Virus record (IMG/VR): IMGVR_UViG_3300029441_000005
Coordinates: 1-64,000 of that record
From: a virus
Length of the DNA stretch: 64,000 bases
Direction: 5' to 3' (one strand)
Below the pieces are notes generated by a model, which was not told where the DNA came from, did not search any database, and worked only from the letters and a program-made list of their open reading frames with translations. Position 1 is the first letter of the stretch, and every line of letters starts with the position of its first letter. This document shows positions 17,058-30,518 of the stretch, one piece after another. Position numbers and translations under genes: made by a program.

Positions 17058-18016
17058 TCTGCCTCCTTAATTACTTTTAATAATGTGGCCTTTTTATTTT
17101 GGTCTTTTATGCCCTTTGCCCTCATATACCTCCTTACCATAGTTTTCTTAGTAAGTTCCCGAGTTATTTGCGGGGCATCTTCCACCGCCACAACCCGATA
17201 CTTGCTAGCAATGACAGTATAATAATTGCCATCATCCTTAATTTCATCTTCTGATGATACATCCACAAATTTAGGAAAGCCTTTGAATGGCTTGAATTCC
17301 ATTGAGAAGTCCTCATATATTTTCCAATATCCAAGTTTACAATTACGGTCTGTTCTCCTTTGTTGTAAAGGAGCTCCTACCATGTATATCTTCTTTCCAA
17401 GCCTCTGAGGTTTATGTATATGGCCTATCAATACTAACTTGAACTTAGATAGAAGATTCACATTCAGATTCTCTACTGTTCCAACTTCAGTATTATCAGT
17501 ATCTTTAGCTCCCGGGTAGTCAGTATGCAATAATAGGATTGTTGGCTTTAACATAGCTTCTTTCAACTCAGCTTTGATTAACCCATCTAACCCCTTGTTA
17601 TGGTCTAAATAGGGAATACCTACTACTCTGAACTTATCAAACTCATGATAAGAGAAGTCCAGATTGTGTAAGAACGAATACCTACGACATAAGTTTGCCC
17701 AGTGTGATGGAGATTGATTAGTTATCGAATTGCTTTTCTGTAGGTCATGGTTTCCAGATATACCATAGATGTTAAATTCCTCGCACCTATTTAACTCTTC
17801 GAACTGTTCAATTATAATTTCATCAAGTGAAGTACTTATATACTCTGGACGGTGCATAAAATCCCCGCAAAAAAATGCCGGGCATTTATACTTAATACAT
17901 AAGTCTTTAATCAAAGAGAGGACCCTGAAAATACTTAGGGTCCTCTTATTATCCTCATTGAACTTAGAGAATTCCCCTAAGTGCAAATCGGAGAATGCTA
18001 TACCTATCACCTTCAT
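17054..18016 (-). CDS. Mre11/SbcD-like nuclease (T4 gp47 analogue)
   Basis: Calcineurin-like phosphoesterase motifs are present: FSDLHLG, GDFMH, GNHD and GHIH. There is a 4-nt overlap with the Rad50-like gene. Confidence 0.85.
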   Translation of the reverse strand: MKVIGIAFSDLHLGEFSKFNEDNKRTLSIFRVLSLIKDLCIKYKCPAFFCGDFMHRPEYISTSLDEIIIEQFEELNRCEEFNIYGISGNHDLQKSNSITNQSPSHWANLCRRYSFLHNLDFSYHEFDKFRVVGIPYLDHNKGLDGLIKAELKEAMLKPTILLLHTDYPGAKDTDNTEVGTVENLNVNLLSKFKLVLIGHIHKPQRLGKKIYMVGAPLQQRRTDRNCKLGYWKIYEDFSMEFKPFKGFPKFVDVSSEDEIKDDGNYYTVIASKYRVVAVEDAPQITRELTKKTMVRRYMRAKGIKDQNKKATLLKVIKEAE

Positions 18017-18675
18017 AACTGAAGAAATTTCTTGATAAGGTGTTTTCTCTTCTCGTAGTTCATCTCATCCAGTATCATGACTTTTATCTTGTAACCCATA
18101 ATTTCCAGTGTACCGGTATTAGGTATACCATTTACATACTGGAGTATATTTGAATCGGGTTTATATCCCCACAGGTCAAGTATACCATACATTACCTGCG
18201 ATACCTGGAATTGATAATACCGAGATAATACTCGTTTACCATTGTCTTCTGTTACCCATTCATTAAAGAAGCTTGCTGAAAAAGGTATGAAAATTAGGTG
18301 AGTACACTGTTGACCCAGTAACATACGACATAAGTCTACTGCATGGTCTAAGTCGCATTCGGCTATCCTGTGAGAAAGTTTGTTGATGAAGTATGCTGCC
18401 GAATCAAAGTATGACCGGTCAGTTACAAAGCTATCTTCTCCCCTGAAAGCTTTGTTACGCAGATTAAGTACTTGCATATCCTGAGCAAATACTGTACTGG
18501 CATCTTGCTGAATCATATCAGCATGAGGCATGTCTCTTGTTTCAGGTACCAAGTCCGAATATGACCCGGATATGAAAGGTATCTTTAACATATCCGCTAC
18601 TTCCTTGGCAATGGTTGTTTTTCCAACCCCAGAAACACCGGTGAACATAATTTGATATTTCCTACCGTTGTACAT
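18013..18675 (-). CDS. P-loop nucleotide/nucleoside kinase-like protein
   Basis: Walker A GVSGVGKTT at the N-terminus, and a DRS...D..AY motif typical of dNMP/dN kinases. Confidence 0.55.
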   Translation of the reverse strand: MYNGRKYQIMFTGVSGVGKTTIAKEVADMLKIPFISGSYSDLVPETRDMPHADMIQQDASTVFAQDMQVLNLRNKAFRGEDSFVTDRSYFDSAAYFINKLSHRIAECDLDHAVDLCRMLLGQQCTHLIFIPFSASFFNEWVTEDNGKRVLSRYYQFQVSQVMYGILDLWGYKPDSNILQYVNGIPNTGTLEIMGYKIKVMILDEMNYEKRKHLIKKFLQL

Positions 18676-22011: not shown

Positions 22012-22458
22012 TTACTGTTGTTTACGTAAGTTTGCTGATATCGTTCTTAATATATTCTCTCTTGATTCATAAGCTTTACATATACTTATCATCTTACTCG
22101 CATTGTACTCAGCCTTCATATATCTTTTCAATGCTCCTTGATAAGCTTGGTTGTTCTCTGCTTTGTGTGCTGCAGCATCATTATTGATATTACCCGATTC
22201 TTTGTAGTAAAGCCATGCCTTGCTATATGCTTGGTCCTTTGCCTTTTCAAGTTTATCCCTTTTATATATAAGCCTATCCCTTACCATCACCAATAGAGCA
22301 TAATTAGATGGACTTCTACGTAAAGACTGATTGACCAGGTTCTCGTCAATCATGAGTTCCTGGTCTAAATCAATCTCATAGGTTTTCCCTTGAAATAGAA
22401 TCTTTAGTGTGTTTTTCTTAATCTGGGATAGACGTACTATCTTTTGCCTTTTTTCCAT
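22012..22458 (-). CDS. possible UvsY-like recombination mediator
   Basis: 148 aa, helical. Its size, position and loose pattern (LYYKE...; C-terminal ISICKAYESRENILRTISANLR) recall T4 UvsY. The evidence is weak. Confidence 0.3.
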   Translation of the reverse strand: MEKRQKIVRLSQIKKNTLKILFQGKTYEIDLDQELMIDENLVNQSLRRSPSNYALLVMVRDRLIYKRDKLEKAKDQAYSKAWLYYKESGNINNDAAAHKAENNQAYQGALKRYMKAEYNASKMISICKAYESRENILRTISANLRKQQ

Positions 22459-22931
22459 ATAACACCTCTTTCACTGAAGTATTTATACATGGTCATAATG
22501 CTTATTCCATATTTGACCTTTATCTGTAGGTTACTCATACCACTCTCATAATCTTCTATCATCTTATTTATAGACTCCTCACTCAACTTAGGGCTTGGTA
22601 TATTAAATCTACCGTCTCTTATACATTGTTGAGTATTCTCTTGGTTAGTACACCAATATAGATTTTCTACTTTATTATTTTCTCGATTATTATCCTTATG
22701 ACCCACACACGGTTTATTATCTGGGTTTGGAATGTAGATTAAAGCTACCAACCTATGTATATTAAACGTATACTTAATCCCCTTATTATTTCTTAGGCTT
22801 ACTATCAAGTAACCATTGTTCTTCTTTCTCTTAGCCATTTTCCTCCAAGTAACTCTATCTCTATACTTAGAGTACACATTACCTTCTCGAGTAACATGGT
22901 AACAATCAAAATCTGGTATATTACCTTTCAT
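22437..22931 (-). CDS. HNH homing endonuclease
   Basis: NGYLIVSL...HRLVALIYIPNPDNKPCVGHKDNNRENNKVENLYWCTNQEN is a typical HNH_3/NUMOD-type core. The C-terminus is HTH-like. Confidence 0.8.
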   Translation of the reverse strand: MKGNIPDFDCYHVTREGNVYSKYRDRVTWRKMAKRKKNNGYLIVSLRNNKGIKYTFNIHRLVALIYIPNPDNKPCVGHKDNNRENNKVENLYWCTNQENTQQCIRDGRFNIPSPKLSEESINKMIEDYESGMSNLQIKVKYGISIMTMYKYFSERGVIWKKGKR

Positions 22932-25215
22932 ACATTCTCTTCCTAAACTCTCTCTTATTTTTCTCTATCTCTTCTGGATATAACTTAGGATAATCTTCTA
23001 TTTCAATACCTTTGAACTTACGATGTTCCTCTAAGTACTCATCAGGATTAAAATCTGGTTCAAGCATTTTCCTATAATCATATCCAGGAATAAAAGGTAG
23101 TTCCTCTGCCATAGAACGCCCGATAACGAAGTCCATTGACATACTTACGTCGTCTATCTGGAAGTTGAAGTATTCTTTAGTATTTGGGTTACGGCAAGTT
23201 TCCCAAATCTCGTATACTACCCAGGTATTTATATATTCGGGACTTACCAAGTAATAGGTAGCATCATGAACATTACAAGTCTCTTGCATAAATGGTAACT
23301 TACCTTGCCTCATTTTCCAATAGTTTAGGATTGAAGCGAATAAGTTCATATCAGATGCAGCTGATTGACAAGGCATATTAACTGATAATCTTACTGCGTA
23401 TGCAGCTTCTTGCTCATTATCAGAATATACTTGAGGTAACCTTCTTTTCCTGCCAAACAAAGATTTAATATATCCATGTCTTACCAACACTTTCTCCTGG
23501 TTAATCATGAACTTCTTAATCTTTGGATGCTCTTGGAAGAACTCATTCAACTGTTGTTGAGCTTCGTCAGGGGTTACGATAATACCTGCTTTTGGGTCAG
23601 ATAGTTTAACTGCAAGCAGTTTCTTCTGAATACCGTAGATAATACCGAAACATATCTGCTTTGCCTGCTTCCTTCGATTTTTCCAAAGCTTATAATCTGG
23701 ATGTTGTTCATCGCTGTAAGCTTTGTTTGCTTCCTCGTATGATACACCATACTTGTTTGCTGCAATAGCAAGGTGAGGGTCCTGACCCTTAGCAAATGCC
23801 TCAAGATAAGTCTCATCTCCCGATAGGTGTGCCATGATTCTTAACTCTGCCTGAGAGTAGTCAAGTGCCATGTATAATTTCCCCTTTGGAGCTACTAACT
23901 GTTTCTTAATATTAGCATCTACTGAAGTCTTTGGTATCTGCTGAAGATTTGGTTCAGAACTACTTAGTCGGCCAGAAGTAGTACCAATAATTTTGAATTG
24001 CCCGTGAATTCTATCATCATCCTGAACTTTATCATGCCATCCCTCAATATAGGTTGTATACATTTTCTTTAACCCTCTCAACTCGAGAAGATTATCCAGG
24101 AAAATTGCTTTGGGATTTTCGGGATTTTTAACCGTTAGTCGAAGTTCTACCAATGTATCTTCATCGGTACTCGGCTTATCAGTATCACGATTAGTTTTCT
24201 TATCCTTGGTATATTTTATGATAGGGAATTTGAACCCCTTTTCAGAATACAACAGTAGAGGTAAATCAATTGTACTTCCCAAGTTTACTTCTCGGGTTAA
24301 TTCCAATTCTTTTTTAGTGGTGAATACACCAGCTCGTATATTGGATATTTTTTGCTCCCTGCTTGCTATTTTCCGTGCGTCCTTTGGGTTATGATAATCC
24401 AGGTCTTCAAGTTCACTTTCAATAGATGCAAGGTACTTGCTTATTCTTTCTTGAACAAGCCATCTAGAGAATTTTTTCACTCGTGGAAGATTCAAGCAAT
24501 TAGAAGTTGCTTGTTCAATCTTTGGCTTGTAAGATTCAAGCAGTTCCTGATTGAATTTCCTATCGAGGTATAATCCGGTTTTTTCAGCATGCTGCAATAC
24601 CCTAGAAGCTGGCATAATCAAATGCCTAAACAAGGGGTACATGCCAATCTCTATTAGCTTACTTTCAAAGAACATAGCTAACCTAAGAGTATAATCGGTA
24701 TCCTGACAACCATACTTGCATAATGGTTCCAAGGGTTTCTTATCCCAAGGTATCTTGTCAAACTTCTCTGCCTTCTCGTAATCGCCATGCTCTGGTAGAT
24801 ACCTTCTAACCATTGACTTCAGGTCATTGGGTTTCTCTTCATTTAGAAGATACTTCATAAGCATTCCATCCAGAACAGTACCTCTAACATATATCCCATA
24901 CAACTCGAATATCTGAAGGTCAAACTTCAGATTCCATCCCACTTTAGTTATATTGGGATTCTCAACCACCTTTCTACCAAAATACTTTAACCAACGTTTC
25001 CAATGAGGGTTTTCATATTCGTGGTGACATAATGGAATAGATACACCAGAACCAACTTGAAAGGTTACAGATAAAATTGTGGGTTTGAAGGTTTTATTAT
25101 AAATACCTTCTGCATTTGTCTCGAAGTCGACGGAAGCTATGCCGGTTTTCAAACAAGCTTTCACAAGCCGCTTGACTTGTGAGAAACTTTTGATTATGTC
25201 ATATCTTGACTCCAT
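22921..25215 (-). CDS. family A DNA polymerase with 3'-5' exonuclease domain
   Basis: ExoI VDFET, motif A LDYSQAELRIMAH, motif B RRKQAKQICFGIIYG and motif C NVHDA. Confidence 0.9.
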   Translation of the reverse strand: MESRYDIIKSFSQVKRLVKACLKTGIASVDFETNAEGIYNKTFKPTILSVTFQVGSGVSIPLCHHEYENPHWKRWLKYFGRKVVENPNITKVGWNLKFDLQIFELYGIYVRGTVLDGMLMKYLLNEEKPNDLKSMVRRYLPEHGDYEKAEKFDKIPWDKKPLEPLCKYGCQDTDYTLRLAMFFESKLIEIGMYPLFRHLIMPASRVLQHAEKTGLYLDRKFNQELLESYKPKIEQATSNCLNLPRVKKFSRWLVQERISKYLASIESELEDLDYHNPKDARKIASREQKISNIRAGVFTTKKELELTREVNLGSTIDLPLLLYSEKGFKFPIIKYTKDKKTNRDTDKPSTDEDTLVELRLTVKNPENPKAIFLDNLLELRGLKKMYTTYIEGWHDKVQDDDRIHGQFKIIGTTSGRLSSSEPNLQQIPKTSVDANIKKQLVAPKGKLYMALDYSQAELRIMAHLSGDETYLEAFAKGQDPHLAIAANKYGVSYEEANKAYSDEQHPDYKLWKNRRKQAKQICFGIIYGIQKKLLAVKLSDPKAGIIVTPDEAQQQLNEFFQEHPKIKKFMINQEKVLVRHGYIKSLFGRKRRLPQVYSDNEQEAAYAVRLSVNMPCQSAASDMNLFASILNYWKMRQGKLPFMQETCNVHDATYYLVSPEYINTWVVYEIWETCRNPNTKEYFNFQIDDVSMSMDFVIGRSMAEELPFIPGYDYRKMLEPDFNPDEYLEEHRKFKGIEIEDYPKLYPEEIEKNKREFRKRMYER

Positions 25216-25462: not shown

Positions 25463-25480
25463 AAGAATTATAAAATCATG

Positions 25481-25563
25481 TACTCGGAGCGGGAATCGAA
25501 CCCGCAAGGTCAATGACCGTCAGAGCTTAAATCTGATGAGTTTACCTATTTCTCCATCCGAGC
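25481..25563 (-). tRNA. tRNA-Leu (anticodon UAA), type II with long variable arm
   Basis: The minus strand reads GCTCGGA-TG-...-TCAGA-TTTAAGC-TCTGA-CGGTCATTGACCTTG-GCGGG-TTCGATT-CCCGC-TCCGAGT-A. No CCA is encoded. Confidence 0.85.
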
Positions 25564-25569
25564 AATAAA

Positions 25570-25593
25570 AATGAGGAGTTATCAGTACTCCTC
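25570..25593 (-). terminator. hairpin plus T-run inside the tRNA cluster
   Basis: 7-bp stem gaggagt/actcctc with a 7-nt loop, followed on the minus strand by ATTTTTATT. It lies immediately 5' of tRNA-Leu. Confidence 0.4.
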
Positions 25594-25774
25594 TAAACTG
25601 GCCGCTGACAAGATATTACCTCTAGAAAGATATCTCACCATTACAGTATCAATTAAGCATCTTATACTTTATACTTATTTAGGTGTTTTTCCTAAAGGGA
25701 GATACTTACCTTTAGTAATATGATTGATCAGTTCATATTCTCACCCAAATATACCATCTGCTTTTCAATGGTAG

Positions 25775-25849
25775 TACGGAAGACAGGATTCGAACCTGCG
25801 ACCCCTTGCTCCCAAAGCAAGTACACTAACCGGACTGTGCTACTTCCGT
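25775..25849 (-). tRNA. tRNA-Pro (anticodon UGG)
   Basis: The minus strand reads ACGGAAG-TA-GCAC-AGTCCGGTTA-GTGT-A-CTTGC-TTTGGGA-GCAAG-GGGTC-GCAGG-TTCGAAT-CCTGT-CTTCCGT-A. Confidence 0.85.
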
Positions 25850-25938
25850 AAATTAGGTACCAGTCTATATCCCTACCGTCCAGTACCTGGGAATGAATCA
25901 GGACTCGTTGTCCACAGCGCAAAATAAAGATTCATTAG

Positions 25939-26012
<74 letters not shown>

Positions 26013-26090: not shown

Positions 26091-26864
26091 TTACCTTAAT
26101 TCGGTCTGGATAGAAGTTTTGAGTTTTACCCAGTCCTTTTTATAACTATGCAAACTATCAATAGTATGATAGAGATAACCAGGTTTGGTACCCACTTCTC
26201 TAGCTACGTATTCCATTAGTTTCCATGCCAAGTATACATCATTTCCAAAGTGAGTTACAAAATCTGATGATCTTTGGTGATAGCAAATATTTAATTGCTT
26301 TTCACCTCGGGCATTCTCCCGTATTAGGAAGTCGTAGTACATTGAACATGGGATGCGCATCTTACCATCCAGGCTTTCAGCATCTGAATATTCTACCTGC
26401 CCATCTTCACCATAGATATTAAGTATGGCTTTACGAGTATCGTTATCATCCTTGAGCAGACCTATAACAGCCTGTAACTTGGTCATTACAATCCCATTAT
26501 ACCTTACTACCTCATTCATTCTCTCTGAATAAGTATAGTCGAAGTACCTACCATTTACAAGAAACTCCCCCCATATTTCAGGACGTAATTTCCAAGCTTC
26601 TCCTGGGTTAATTTGTCCCGGATGGATCCTTTCCTGGAACTCGGCATCTGCCCAATCTTTGGATTGGGTGAATACAAATAGGGGAGCCGGGTCTTCCATG
26701 TGAGTTAAACAGTACTGTTCACATATCAATTCTTTAGTAATAAAGTCATCTTTGCCTTCGATAACTTTATTCTGATAGGTACGGGGTTTTACCTCATTAC
26801 CCATCTCACAAAGATTACGAGCTGTTTCTGACATTAACTCATACGGGTTCGAATATATTCTCAT
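26091..26864 (-). CDS. ThyA-superfamily pyrimidine C5-transferase, dCMP hydroxymethylase-like
   Basis: DTRKAILNIY (compare T4 gp42 DSRRGIMIY), catalytic-Cys motif IPCSMYYDFLIRE, YHQRSSDFVTHFGNDVYLAW (compare gp42 MRSNDVVFGFRNDYAW) and SLHSY (compare SLHVY). The specificity position is Asp, as in gp42, not Asn as in ThyA. Confidence 0.7.
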   Translation of the reverse strand: MRIYSNPYELMSETARNLCEMGNEVKPRTYQNKVIEGKDDFITKELICEQYCLTHMEDPAPLFVFTQSKDWADAEFQERIHPGQINPGEAWKLRPEIWGEFLVNGRYFDYTYSERMNEVVRYNGIVMTKLQAVIGLLKDDNDTRKAILNIYGEDGQVEYSDAESLDGKMRIPCSMYYDFLIRENARGEKQLNICYHQRSSDFVTHFGNDVYLAWKLMEYVAREVGTKPGYLYHTIDSLHSYKKDWVKLKTSIQTELR

Positions 26865-27061
26865 TGTTCGTGATTTTTAATATATTTTCTTATAGATTTT
26901 CGTAGTTCTTTTAGGTCCTGAATATTCATGTTGGGAAGACCTACCCAATAATTAACATTGGTACATACATATAACTCTATGTCCCTGCCATTCCTATCAG
27001 GATATTTACCCTTGAATATCTTTACTCCAAAATAGGGTTTATCTTTCCTCTCGTACTTCAC
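26861..27061 (-). CDS. hypothetical small protein
   Basis: 66-aa ORF whose C-terminus NMNIQDLKELRKSIRKYIKN is shared with the next small ORF. Confidence 0.45.
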   Translation of the reverse strand: MKYERKDKPYFGVKIFKGKYPDRNGRDIELYVCTNVNYWVGLPNMNIQDLKELRKSIRKYIKNHEQ

Positions 27062-27218
27062 TTAGATACCTCCTTATCTTTCTTTTAAGTTGCCTTAAAT
27101 CCTTTACACTGATATTGGCCACGGTATTGAATAACCACCCATCATCCGTGGAGAAAGTTATATCTATATCTCCTCCGAGTTTACTGGTGTAAGGAGATTT
27201 CTTTACCTCTATTTTCAT
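27039..27218 (-). CDS. hypothetical small protein (below the ORF-track cutoff), paralogue of 26861-27061
   Basis: 59 codons, MKIEVKKSPYTSKLGGDIDITFSTDDGWLFNTVANISVKDLRQLKRKIRRYLSEVREER. It fills the gap between annotated ORFs. Confidence 0.4.
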   Translation of the reverse strand: MKIEVKKSPYTSKLGGDIDITFSTDDGWLFNTVANISVKDLRQLKRKIRRYLSEVREER

Positions 27219-27254: not shown

Positions 27255-28043
27255 TTAGAATGGTAGCCAGTCTTCACTACCGAGTGTACAATCCTTTGCC
27301 AGTGTTTTGGGATATTTGAATAATTCTGGTCTGAGTACTTTCAATGCTCTTTTATGTACCTTATACTTTATCTTGTCAGGGTCTACTTTAAGTAGATACT
27401 TCAACCTATCATACCAATTACCATCATATATACCAAGCTTATCACTAAGCTTTAATAGGTCTTCATGAGCATGATACATTAGTAATACAGTATCATCGTT
27501 GAATATCTGACTGAAGTGTATTGATACATGGAATTTCTGTCCGATAGGGAATAAGTATTCCCCTATCCTTTGAATCAGTAATAGGTCACAGATAAGTCTT
27601 TTGGTTACCTCTGATGCCCTCATGAATACCGTTATCATAGGGTAATCCATACCTGCTTTCTTTGATACAGTTAGAGACAACAAGCAATTCTTGCCATGAG
27701 CATGCTTATTATCAAACTGATAGCCTATGTTGAATATCTTCCTTGAGTTTAAGGCTTTTACTACTTCCTGCCTTAAATCAATTATACCGTTTTCATTCAC
27801 ATAATTTGCTACCAAAGACTTCCACTTAGCTGAAGTGTAATTGAAATGCCTGCCGAAATCGAATTCAGGATCTACCAGAGGTTCTTTAATATAGATGACT
27901 AAATCATTTAAGTATTGTGCTTTACCAATTCTTTCAATATCCAAACCGGGAGTATTGAAAAGGAATAATCTGTTAAGTCCCTCCCAAGCTTTCATACTTG
28001 TTTTGAACTTCAACAGGTTATTCTTTAACTTAAACTTACTCAT
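27255..28043 (-). CDS. unknown enzyme-like protein, paralogue A (remote ThyA-like motif order)
   Basis: Shares these motifs with 28036-29025: AWE, DPEFDFGxxFxYTxxKWxxLxxNY, IGYxFxxxHxxGKxCL, ITVxxRxSExxxRLxxDxLL and NDxTxLLxY. Confidence 0.6.
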   Translation of the reverse strand: MSKFKLKNNLLKFKTSMKAWEGLNRLFLFNTPGLDIERIGKAQYLNDLVIYIKEPLVDPEFDFGRHFNYTSAKWKSLVANYVNENGIIDLRQEVVKALNSRKIFNIGYQFDNKHAHGKNCLLSLTVSKKAGMDYPMITVFMRASEVTKRLICDLLLIQRIGEYLFPIGQKFHVSIHFSQIFNDDTVLLMYHAHEDLLKLSDKLGIYDGNWYDRLKYLLKVDPDKIKYKVHKRALKVLRPELFKYPKTLAKDCTLGSEDWLPF

Positions 28044-29025
28044 CTGTTTCAGGAGTTAATTCACTGTCATCCATATCGTCTTCTTCTGAAGAGGAGAATG
28101 ATATCAACTTCTTCCTTTTCTTCTCCCCACTTTCCTCTAGCTTTAGTTTGAGACCATACTTTTCGGTGAACTTTAAGTAGGTCTTTTTTATCATGTTACG
28201 CTTGAGGATAGAGGGACATACCTCGGGCAATGGGATACCATCCCAATCTCCAATTTCTAAGGCTGAGGCTAACATAGATTTCTGTTTATACCCCAAATCT
28301 TTCCTTAATACCTTGAAAGCTCTGAAACTGTTACCATAGGTTTTATAACCTGCTTCATCGCTTGTCATAAGTTTTTTGAGAGATTTACGTATCTTCTTTC
28401 TACGTACTTCATCGGTACAGTTCTCTTTCAATAACTCCTTAATATCTTTTCGATTCTGATACAGCAAGATTGTAGTATCATTTGCCCAAGCTGCTTTGAT
28501 AACCAACTTTAGAGAGAAGTTATCATGGCCATAAATATACTGACCCATACGGCAGAATAGTAGCATATCTATGGGCAACCTTGTAACTATCTCTGAAGAT
28601 CGGAGTATTACTGTTATATCAGGATTTTCAACTCCTATCTTACGAGAGAATATACCGCCCACCAAGCATCCCTTACCACTGCCATGATTATCAGCAAAAT
28701 GGAATCCAATGTGATAATTCCTGTTTACTGTCTTGTTCTCTTCTAACTTCCTTATCATCAGTTTGGCCTGATCAAGTACATCCAAATCCAAGTAGTTGGT
28801 AATTAAACCAGTCCACTTAGTCATGGTGTACCCAAACATCTTACCGAAGTCAAAGTCAGGGTTAAATTTAGCCTCAGCTATTTCTACCATCAAGTCGTAT
28901 GTAAAAAGAGAATCGGTTAAGTTATAACCAATTCCTTCACAAAACCAGTCGGGTTTCTTGATTAAGAAATTTTCCAGTATCTTTTCCCAAGCTTCTATTG
29001 GGTTCTTAGCTTTTACCAAATTCAT
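28036..29025 (-). CDS. unknown enzyme-like protein, paralogue B, with acidic Ser-rich tail
   Basis: The start was moved to ATG 29025 (MNLVKAKNPIEAWEKI...), adjacent to the stop of the upstream gene. The motifs are the same as in paralogue A. Confidence 0.6.
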   Translation of the reverse strand: MNLVKAKNPIEAWEKILENFLIKKPDWFCEGIGYNLTDSLFTYDLMVEIAEAKFNPDFDFGKMFGYTMTKWTGLITNYLDLDVLDQAKLMIRKLEENKTVNRNYHIGFHFADNHGSGKGCLVGGIFSRKIGVENPDITVILRSSEIVTRLPIDMLLFCRMGQYIYGHDNFSLKLVIKAAWANDTTILLYQNRKDIKELLKENCTDEVRRKKIRKSLKKLMTSDEAGYKTYGNSFRAFKVLRKDLGYKQKSMLASALEIGDWDGIPLPEVCPSILKRNMIKKTYLKFTEKYGLKLKLEESGEKKRKKLISFSSSEEDDMDDSELTPETDE

Positions 29026-29026
29026 A

Positions 29027-29938
29027 CTAATACTTCGATTTTTGACGGAACATATTGATACGGTTCTTCTTGAAATAGATGTAGAATACATCATCTGAAC
29101 CCATACCTATCCATCCCAAATACCCACAGAAGTAGATGAAGGCCTTCACTAATTCCGACTGATACTTTAACTCCTGAGTCATTACCTGGGATTGCTTCCA
29201 GGGTTTATTCTTCAGGAAGTTACGAGCAATGTTCAGATGATGGGTTATCTTCCATAACAGATATGGGTAGTTTACTAAGTACTCTACATAATTGAAGTAT
29301 CTACCTCCCTCGAGTAACTTTGTGTTATAGTCCAGATGTGTTTCTGAATCCATGTTCTCGTACCACTTGATAAGGTCTGTGGCATTGTTGTGTAAGATAA
29401 CACTGATATCTCCCTTGACCATTATCCACATTACCCCGAGATTCATTGCTGTACGCAGAATATCATCGTGGTTCTTGTTTAGAGAATCTACCACTGATTG
29501 AGTACAATGGTTGTCCTTTACCCACTTCTCCATATATGTCATTATATCCTCTGGTTGGATATTGGCATATATAAGCAGTTCTATAAAGAAGTGGATTGCA
29601 TCGGCGTTCTCTTCGTTAGCATTCTGCAGATTATTGAGTATCTCTGTATACTCTATGCAATCTCCTTGGGTTTGTACCAACTTGGCATGATTGGCTTCGA
29701 ATAAAGCCATAACATTTTCGAAAGATTCATATCCTTCGGATAACTCCTCAATAACCCGGGCAGTAAAGTCCTTCAATAGTGTTTGAGAAGCCTTTGTATT
29801 GATGTCTACCGGATACTGTGGTAGCCCCTCTATGCCTATATACCCAGACAAGAGGTTCTTTTGCATTTGATATATCTCTTCTAGATACTTATGGTCGGGA
29901 ATTATACCCGGTTCTTCTTTTATATCGCGACTATCCAT
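29027..29938 (-). CDS. all-alpha NTP pyrophosphohydrolase (dimeric dUTPase/dCTPase or MazG-like)
   Basis: The start was moved to ATG 29938 (MDSRDIKEE...). The motifs ARVIEELSEGYE and ENADAIHFFIELLIY resemble the E-x-x-E / E-x-x-D metal-binding helices of the dimeric dUTPase-dCTPase family. Confidence 0.5.
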   Translation of the reverse strand: MDSRDIKEEPGIIPDHKYLEEIYQMQKNLLSGYIGIEGLPQYPVDINTKASQTLLKDFTARVIEELSEGYESFENVMALFEANHAKLVQTQGDCIEYTEILNNLQNANEENADAIHFFIELLIYANIQPEDIMTYMEKWVKDNHCTQSVVDSLNKNHDDILRTAMNLGVMWIMVKGDISVILHNNATDLIKWYENMDSETHLDYNTKLLEGGRYFNYVEYLVNYPYLLWKITHHLNIARNFLKNKPWKQSQVMTQELKYQSELVKAFIYFCGYLGWIGMGSDDVFYIYFKKNRINMFRQKSKY

Positions 29939-29942
29939 GGTC

Positions 29943-30518
29943 TTACTTGTTATCGTGTGCTCCGAATCCTTTGTCTCCTCTTGTACCCCAGTTCTTTGCC
30001 TTCTCTTCGTACTCTTCATTGGTAATCTCTACCGGAGTTGAAAGTATGATGGGAACGTGTACGAATTGCATTATTTTCTTACCTTGGTTCAGAGGAATAC
30101 AAACCTCTTCGGGTGAACCGTTATGAATACCTATGTGCATTTCCCCAGTATAAGGGCTATCCACTATCTCGGCAGTGAACGACAAACCCTCTTTAGTTGC
30201 AATCCCAGATTTATTTGCTGCCATGAGCATGGACTCTTTTGGATTGATAAGTACCTTTATACCAGAAGGGATGAGAAGTCTTCCACCTGGCTTAATTACC
30301 ACATGTACATCATCAGTACCCAACCCATTTAGTTTGATGTAACCTTTACCTAACATCTTCCGATTGATACCGGAAAAGTCATCCTTACCTTTCTCCCCAA
30401 CCTTAAGAATATCTTGGTCGGATAACTGAGGAATGTAGAAATCAAGCCCTGCATCCCCCTCATTTGCTCGGTTAGGGGATTTAACCTCTCGAATCTTTGT
30501 GAACTCTAATTGTACCAT
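29943..30518 (-). CDS. dut: trimeric dUTPase-fold enzyme
   Basis: Motif 1 GDAGLD, motif 2 NKSGIA, motif 3 IVDSPYTGEM, motif 4 KIMQFV and motif 5 RGDKGFG. There is a large insertion after motif 1. Confidence 0.8.
   Translation of the reverse strand: MVQLEFTKIREVKSPNRANEGDAGLDFYIPQLSDQDILKVGEKGKDDFSGINRKMLGKGYIKLNGLGTDDVHVVIKPGGRLLIPSGIKVLINPKESMLMAANKSGIATKEGLSFTAEIVDSPYTGEMHIGIHNGSPEEVCIPLNQGKKIMQFVHVPIILSTPVEITNEEYEEKAKNWGTRGDKGFGAHDNK

Follow-up and report, generated by a model that had tools for sequence, protein, structure and literature searches.

The window analysed here, to which all coordinates refer, is a phage genome segment of 64,000 nucleotides (IMG/VR record IMGVR_UViG_3300029441_000005, positions 1 to 64,000) whose replication genes lie on the minus strand throughout. 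It encodes two adjacent paralogous proteins, ParA and ParB, which belong to a protein family termed X and are predicted to adopt the fold of thymidylate synthase (ThyA). X is best classed as an uncharacterised new branch within the ThyA superfamily. In our preferred reading, to which we give about even chances, ParA and ParB are diverged duplicates within a phage-only branch of this superfamily that lacks annotation and that would act on a cytosine deoxynucleotide before replication, with cysteine catalysis; X is probably a missing enzyme of a modified-cytosine pathway.

ParA and ParB

27255-28043, minus strand: ParA, an open reading frame (ORF) of 262 amino acids, A-type member of the predicted ThyA-fold family X.
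28036-29025, minus strand: ParB, 329 amino acids, B-type paralogue of family X.

Both ORFs, delineated in an earlier note made from the DNA letters alone, are real and on the minus strand, and the start that the note had chosen for ParB holds. The longest ParB ORF spans 28036-29094 (352 amino acids), but the start at 29025 (MNLVKAK...) is preferred because the B-type orthologues are 328-335 amino acids long and because this ATG is positioned 1 base past the upstream stop codon. The ATG of ParA is located within the final codons of ParB, giving an overlap of 8 nucleotides. The proposed homology of the two proteins is borne out by BLASTP, with 32% identity over 268 columns and an E value of 3e-40, far above chance. 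The four shared motifs quoted in support of it are present, with two corrections of detail: ParB carries NPDFDFG, not DP(E/D)FDFG, and its version of NDxTxLLxY, NDTTILLY, is shorter by one residue.

Predicted fold

Scans of Pfam and NCBIfam at E<=1 gave no hit for either protein; ParA, but not ParB, matches phrog_34294, a family of unknown function (E 4e-8). Searches of the PDB chain sequences with ParA and with the family profile gave noise only. The AlphaFold2 model of ParA, built from an alignment of 39 homologues, has a mean predicted local distance difference test score (pLDDT) of 90.5 and a predicted template modelling (TM) score of 0.89, while that of ParB, built from 40 sequences, has a pLDDT of 84.2. 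When the models were compared with the PDB by Foldseek, all matches at E <= 0.001 were ThyA-fold enzymes, namely AfhB, MilA, the deoxycytidine monophosphate (dCMP) hydroxymethylase of T4 and many ThyA, and the same holds for ParB. The best match is AfhB (PDB 9iqu), with E values of 1.5e-7 for ParA and 1e-5 for ParB; the ParA matches at this threshold have probabilities of 0.99-1.00 and TM scores of 0.36-0.57. The models thus assign a ThyA fold to ParA and ParB, as expected from their suggested membership of the ThyA/dCMP-hydroxymethylase superfamily.

The ThyA family model PF00303 matches neither ParA nor ParB at E<=1, nor any of eight distant X members, and no fused domain was found in the longer X members scanned (up to 483 amino acids). 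A protein of Pseudomonas phage PMBT14 is a structural neighbour in BFVD (TM 0.65).

Conserved core and correspondence to the ThyA active site

Five residues (K73, Y81, C120, R142 and D153, ParA numbering) are conserved in 100% of 222 X members and E145 in 98%, while Y69, W74, L77, F110, G117, E145, R149 and R232 are nearly invariant. The five fully conserved residues persist in the alignment of lineages that share only 15-20% identity.

Conserved core of ParA: Y69, K73, W74, Y81, H114, G117, K118, C120, R142, S144, E145, R149, D153, R159 and R232.

The X profile detects phage ThyA homologues by hmmsearch with an E value of 3e-6 (five-sequence set). The resulting alignment pairs Cys120 with the catalytic Cys146 of E. 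coli ThyA, Arg142 with Arg166, Ser144 with Cys168 and Glu145 with Asp169, so that R-x-S-E aligns with R-S-C-D, and Asp153 falls on position 177 (Asn177 in ThyA, Asp179 in T4 dCMP hydroxymethylase). The numbering of the E. coli ThyA and T4 dCMP hydroxymethylase sequences used as references came out right (Cys148, Asp179, Arg123/124, His216 and Tyr218). The order of motifs that had first suggested a ThyA relationship, a Cys, then R-x-S-E, then an Asp, is confirmed and aligns with Cys146, Arg166...Asp169 and Asn177. The Asp lies 9 residues after the Ser and hence 11 after the Arg, a spacing equal to that of Arg166-Asn177 in E. coli ThyA and of Arg168-Asp179 in T4 dCMP hydroxymethylase. In the ParA model, Cys120 directly precedes the strand 121-128, and at the Glu145 position many B-type members carry Asp. 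An hhalign comparison with a small ThyA alignment keeps the Arg...Asp register found by hmmsearch; since its probability reached only 6%, the link between X and ThyA rests on the Foldseek matches and the hmmsearch alignment. The presence of Asp153 at the base-specificity position points to a cytosine-type substrate.

The active site is otherwise divergent, as had been noticed. The Ser167 equivalent of X is variable (Ala, Ser, Val or Thr); the X alignments show no conserved basic pair corresponding to Arg126'/Arg127' before the strand equivalent to RIIVSAW; the folate-site positions 171-173 are occupied by Thr-Lys-Arg in A-type and by Val-Thr-Arg in B-type members; and the position of Leu143 is occupied by Gly117. 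No His-x-Tyr equivalent to His207/Tyr209, which contact the 3'-OH, was identified in X, where the N- and C-terminal alignment is unreliable.

This apparent loss of the mononucleotide contacts (Ser167, Arg126'/127' and His207/Tyr209) would also suit an enzyme that acts on DNA after replication, flipping out cytosine, 5-methylcytosine (5mC) or 5-hydroxymethylcytosine and altering the C5 substituent by Cys-C6 addition. The conserved basic residues K73, K118, K148, R149, R159 and R232 and the basic C-terminal helix of the ancestral and B-type forms agree with such an activity, and Cys-C6 chemistry on DNA has a precedent in aGPT-Pplase2, which works on 5-phosphomethyl-deoxyuridine (PMC8989533). However, all ThyA-fold enzymes among the Foldseek matches use mononucleotides, the tightest genomic link of X is to enzymes of the nucleotide pool (a nucleoside triphosphate (NTP) pyrophosphatase and a nucleotide kinase, see below), and Pfam scans of ParA, ParB and the eight distant members detected no DNA-binding domain. 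We therefore regard a DNA-level activity as unlikely.

A cytosine-type ThyA homologue within a conserved cassette

ParA and ParB are encoded in a cassette whose components in the window, together with nearby genes, are:

26091-26864, minus strand: ThyA homologue of the Asp177/Arg143/Ser147 type (PF00303, E 1.5e-15).
29027-30019, minus strand: all-alpha NTP pyrophosphatase, dUTPase_2/MazG-like, 330 amino acids (PF08761, phrog_12184, phrog_173).
29943-30518, minus strand: trimeric-type dUTPase (PF00692, E 5e-9; phrog_135).
18013-18675, minus strand: P-loop nucleotide kinase, thymidylate-kinase-like (best matches to thymidylate-kinase PHROGs, otherwise generic P-loop matches).
22921-25215, minus strand: family A DNA polymerase (PolA), the conserved downstream end of the cassette.
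26861-27061 and 27039-27218, minus strand: two small tandem ORFs of 66 and 59 amino acids, between ParA and the ThyA homologue.

ParB, ParA and the gene at 26091-26864 thus form three ThyA-fold genes in a row, as the earlier note had remarked, the fold of the first two being predicted. The third retains W80, Y94, R126, C146, R166, S167, D169, H207 and Y209 of E. coli ThyA, with Asp at the position of Asn177, Arg at that of Leu143 and Ser at that of His147. It is predicted to be a C5 one-carbon transferase specific for cytosine (dCMP), not uracil, and its Asp177 indicates that cytosine, and not uracil or thymine, is the base at issue in the cassette. The substitution Asn177Asp switches the substrate of thymidylate synthase to dCMP, and Asp177 and a non-His residue at 147 are the ThyA residues most associated with phage contigs containing modified cytosine (PMC8670742). 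Every ThyA homologue associated with X, whether from gut phages, Clostridium phages, actinophages or distant metagenomic lineages, has Asp177, Arg143 and Ser or Thr147; Microbacterium phage Triscuit has, in addition, a canonical Leu143/His147/Asn177 thymidylate synthase.

The cytosine-type neighbour bears on a further suggestion of the earlier note, that the pair might be post-replicative hypermodification enzymes, with the aGPT-Pplase type as one to be tested. Enzymes of that type belong to thymidine hypermodification, and the analogy with them is loose, lying in two paralogues that conserve a Cys and a Glu. Their fold is glycosylase-like, with a helix-hairpin-helix (PMC8989533), and the ThyA-like fold of the ParA and ParB models together with the lack of any aGPT-Pplase match in Pfam (E<=1) rules this candidate out. 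Cys120 and Glu145 are moreover separated by 25 residues and not adjacent, and next to an Asp177 homologue there is no evident supply of 5-hydroxymethyldeoxyuridine and no pointer to thymidine hypermodification. The kinase 18013-18675 gave no match that would support a 5-hydroxymethyluracil DNA kinase, being thymidylate-kinase-like instead. We consider an aGPT-Pplase-type function of ParA and ParB extremely improbable.

The cassette runs from the all-alpha NTP pyrophosphatase through X(B), X(A) and the Asp177/Arg143 ThyA homologue to PolA, with a nucleotide kinase nearby, and nearly all lineages keep the sequence of pyrophosphatase, X, ThyA homologue and PolA. The order was examined in 79 IMG/VR loci, 76 of which have enough flanking sequence: the Asp177 ThyA homologue is downstream of X in 76/76, the NTP pyrophosphatase directly upstream in 76/76 and a trimeric-type dUTPase present in 75/76, and the B-A pair is found in 73 loci. 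Adjacent cassette genes (X and the thymidylate synthase homologue, the pyrophosphatase and X, B and A) commonly overlap by a few bases. Members about 20% identical to ParA occur in the order pyrophosphatase, X, ThyA homologue, (ligase), dCMP deaminase and PolA, and in other lineages the kinase gene directly precedes that of the NTP pyrophosphatase. Clostridium perfringens phage CPAS-15 shows the order kinase, "dUTPase", X, thymidylate synthase and PolA. Its X protein (CPAS15_0021, locus L002, 6833-7582) is labelled "colanic acid biosynthesis glycosyltransferase WcaC", a label that appears wrong because the protein matches phrog_34294 with an E value of 3e-181 and has no Pfam match.

When the ThyA homologue was traced in actinophages, the same arrangement appeared in JacoRen57, Muddy, GTE2, Shrew, KimJongPhill and Triscuit: it runs from a helicase and a nucleotide kinase through dUTPase/MazG and a "hypothetical protein" of about 296 amino acids to thymidylate synthase, (dCMP deaminase) and DNA polymerase I. 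These hypothetical proteins, which include gp47 of Mycobacterium phage Muddy and orf39 of Gordonia phage GTE2 and are present in 85 records, join X with an hhalign probability of 97.8% and an E value of 7e-13, and keep the Cys, the Arg and the Asp 11 residues later. Intermediate members matching both phrog_34294 and phrog_13667 bridge the actinophage branch to X. Muddy gp45 (locus L099, 5167-5709) and a JacoRen57 ORF (locus L097, from 4546 onward), both "hypothetical" and located downstream of the ThyA homologue, are dCMP-deaminase-like, with phmmer E values of 4e-45 and 1e-47, respectively; the JacoRen57 ORF exceeds the length of the annotated coding sequence.

The part in a base-modification pathway proposed for the pair is compatible with this conserved cassette. 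Domains of ligase, dCMP deaminase and PRA-PH-type pyrophosphatase show the same association with phage contigs containing modified cytosine (PMC8670742), and dCMP deaminases in modified contigs are found together with ThyA homologues, PRA-PH and PolA; five deaminase-associated ThyA homologues and the Xp12 enzyme make 5-methyl-deoxycytidine (5mdC), and the adjacent deaminases are selective for 5mC (bioRxiv 10.1101/2024.12.05.627091).

The shared fold and the shared Cys/Arg/acid/Asp core could also mean that X is a redundant, fast-evolving dCMP hydroxymethylase or methylase, or a thymidylate synthase, performing the same folate-dependent reaction as its neighbour. We judge this improbable, given that X escapes PF00303, that its A-type folate-site residues are Thr-Lys-Arg and that Gly replaces Leu143. 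In addition, X is retained beside the Asp177 ThyA homologue, and sometimes beside an Asn177 thymidylate synthase as well, over very large evolutionary distances, and this retention next to both enzymes argues for a distinct role. In loci L071, L073, L074, L078 and L080, a canonical Asn177 thymidylate synthase is inserted in the cassette, so that as many as four ThyA-fold genes follow one another; it separates B from A or the pyrophosphatase from B, or else stands where B would be. Since L071, L078 and L080 have both genes, the idea that ParB substitutes for thymidylate synthase, raised by the synthase in the B slot of L073 and L074, was set aside.

Among the other genes of the region, the 66- and 59-residue ORFs are mutual paralogues (BLASTP E 4e-8), and the former recurs in relatives L001 and L061. 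Genes for tRNA-Leu(taa), tRNA-Pro(tgg) and tRNA-Met(cat) occupy 25480-26012 on the minus strand, between the DNA polymerase and ThyA-like genes, and an HNH/NUMOD4 homing-endonuclease-like ORF (22437-22931, minus strand) abuts the PolA gene. The PolA ORFs of several relatives are 1040-1100 amino acids long as compared with 764 here, which suggests an insertion or intein, and relative L005 has a RecA containing an intein. The pyrophosphatase 29027-30019, a candidate dCTPase, has 330 amino acids versus 118-264 in Clostridium phages, actinophages and the distant metagenomic lineages; its dUTPase_2 match is mostly C-terminal, leaving a large additional N-terminal region.

Distribution

Family X is restricted to phages and small, as judged from cluster representatives and species genomes. 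A HMMER scan of 1.84 billion cluster representatives retrieved 251 X members, and only 5 X copies were found in 185,579 species genomes, all in bins of metagenome-assembled genomes, four on contigs of 61-82 kb and one on a contig of 5.7 kb. One ParB cluster has 3,382 members, and a relative is encoded in at least 558 IMG/VR stretches. The window itself shares 91% nucleotide identity with a human-faecal phage contig and 81% with Phage DP SC_6_H4_2017. No Xanthomonas or T4-type phage yielded an X when ParA, ParB and the actinophage homologue served as tblastn queries. A literature search that included MT121964/MT121960, the C. perfringens phages, Muddy and cytosine hypermodification found no characterisation of family X.

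A-type and B-type members

Both paralogues retain the whole conserved core and differ consistently, from A to B, by N112D, T147V, K148T and M189L. ParB has, in addition, a C-terminal helix (residues 273-290) and a disordered acidic tail (residues 296-329, window 28036-28140). Disordered, strongly acidic C-terminal tails are carried independently by the distant members Shrew gp74 and Triscuit gp64 and resemble the interaction tails of phage single-strand-binding proteins. The single-copy relatives combine an A-like active-site helix with the B-type C-terminal extension, features that fit a single ancestral gene having been duplicated, after which the copies sub-functionalised or came to form a heterodimer. 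The A-B pair is old; in one locus, the B is 50% identical to ParB and the A about 38% identical to ParA. The A and B proteins probably work together as a heterodimer or are sub-functionalised duplicates.

Dimerisation is obligatory in ThyA enzymes. This property, if kept, would allow a different role for X, that of a non- or half-catalytic partner of the Asp177 ThyA homologue (or of A with B), or of a tether to the replisome. The strict co-occurrence of X with the Asp177/Arg143 homologue, the overlaps of the adjacent genes, the lack in X of the Arg126'/127' pair that a partner subunit normally provides and the acidic C-terminal tails of ParB, Shrew gp74 and Triscuit gp64 are all in keeping with a partner role. 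Against it stands the invariance of Cys120, Arg142 and Asp153 at about 15-20% identity, which is hard to explain without catalysis or specific nucleotide binding, and we hold a partner role to be unlikely.

Proposed pathway and points against it

In the reading that we prefer, X would take part in a pre-replicative replacement of cytosine analogous to that by T4 gp56, gp42 and gp1. The pyrophosphatase would convert deoxycytidine triphosphate (dCTP) to dCMP, and the Asp177 ThyA homologue would add a one-carbon group at C5. X may then bind dCMP or the 5-substituted product, held by Asp153 and Arg142 while Cys120 attacks C6, and could perform a second or alternative reaction at C5 with a non-folate co-substrate, after which the kinase and PolA would bring the product into DNA. 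A bolder version, in which X is a new kind of pyrimidine-modifying enzyme, a folate-free ThyA-fold protein that applies Cys-C6 covalent catalysis to cytosine, either in a nucleotide or in DNA, so as to install or convert a C5 substituent and yield an undescribed cytosine modification, is put forward only tentatively, as a possibility that we do not rate as likely.

Several points weigh against a pre-replicative enzyme of this kind. The role of X is drawn from sequence, predicted fold and gene context, and the pocket geometry of Cys120, Arg142 and Asp153 is deduced from the alignment. In the hhalign comparison of X with the small ThyA alignment, whose probability was 6%, the Cys is two residues off. 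The actinophage branch has R-T-G-Y, with Gly-Tyr replacing Ser-Glu, and, with Ser167, Arg126'/127' and His207/Tyr209 either not kept or not identified, the 5'-phosphate site for a mononucleotide is only putative. The Asp177 ThyA homologues of deaminase-associated metavirome contigs reportedly make 5mdC (bioRxiv 10.1101/2024.12.05.627091); if these came from X cassettes and were assayed without X, X would be dispensable for the first step. Finally, the close relative MT121964.1 encodes a C5-cytosine-methyltransferase-like protein (locus L096, 4682-5677) in a genome region beyond the window, and tblastn found no copy of this gene in the 64-kb window. Such a gene would be pointless if all cytosine were already substituted at C5, and it is thus hard to reconcile with complete pre-replicative substitution.

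Implications

The cassette of pyrophosphatase, Asp177 ThyA, deaminase and PolA has already been mined through its Pfam domains for modified-cytosine biology and sequencing enzymes. At its centre X, a conserved gene whose core looks catalytic, was overlooked because neither Pfam nor NCBIfam has a model for it and its annotation reads "hypothetical" or, once, glycosyltransferase. X is abundant in the human gut and also occurs in phages of Clostridium perfringens, Gordonia, Streptomyces and Mycobacterium that can be cultivated, so that the question is directly testable. If X is an enzyme, it would widen the chemistry of the thymidylate-synthase fold, which recently gained a flavin-dependent hydroxylase, and it may signal an unrecognised DNA base. 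If the proposal is true, a widespread cassette, carried by abundant phages of the human gut and by cultured phages such as the therapeutic mycobacteriophage Muddy, would produce an undescribed cytosine modification. DNA modification influences the evasion of restriction and CRISPR by phages and is relevant to phage therapy.

Comparison with known systems

The best structural match of X is AfhB of phage HY126 (PDB 9iqu/9iqc; TM 0.49/0.57 for ParA). AfhB and RB69 gp48 are flavin-dependent 5-hydroxy-dCMP synthases of ThyA fold, which have abandoned folate chemistry and still act on dCMP. The change of Asp169 to Asn is diagnostic of these synthases (PMC13326640), whereas X has Glu or Asp at this position, shares 12-13% identity with AfhB and superimposes with a TM score of about 0.5; without the Asp169Asn signature, X was ruled out as a 5-hydroxy-dCMP synthase. 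No arabinosyl or glycosyl transferase genes were seen near X.

MilA, the CMP hydroxymethylase of the mildiomycin pathway, likewise combines a ThyA fold with a cytosine nucleotide as its substrate (Foldseek E 7e-7). Unlike X, it belongs to cellular secondary metabolism, uses a ribonucleotide and depends on folate, and the alignment has a poor root mean square deviation of about 15 Å. With aGPT-Pplase2 and the amino-acid:DNA transferases, whose genes often form paralogous pairs, there is a possible mechanistic analogy only, a thiolate attacking C6 and thereby activating C5 for reaction (PMC8989533); aGPT-Pplase2 has another fold, acts on 5-phosphomethyl-deoxyuridine in DNA and shows no sequence relationship to X.

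T4 gp42, the dCMP hydroxymethylase, resembles X in its ThyA fold (Foldseek E 7e-5 to 5e-4 for ParA) and in the catalytic Cys, Arg168, acidic residue 171 and Asp179, whose spacing matches that of X. The T4 set of gp56 dCTPase, gp42 and gp1 kinase follows the same genomic logic of an NTP pyrophosphatase, a ThyA-fold enzyme and a nucleotide kinase. The differences are nevertheless extensive: X is about 9-10% identical to gp42 and has no PF00303 match; at the Leu143 position it has Gly and no acidic residue such as Asp145, which occupies the water-access position in gp42; it lacks the Arg123'/124' pair; its folate-site residues are replaced; and its C-terminal half is different. X also accompanies a genuine Asp177 ThyA homologue and does not take its place.

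The Asp177 ThyA homologues, represented by the Xp12 dCMP methyltransferase and the MetaGPA homologues, are the likely counterparts of the neighbour of X at 26091-26864. As a separate gene without a Pfam model, X would be undetectable by domain-based neighbourhood analyses; the published neighbourhood of ThyA homologue, PRA-PH-type pyrophosphatase, dCMP deaminase and PolA matches the X cassette (PMC8670742; bioRxiv 10.1101/2024.12.05.627091).

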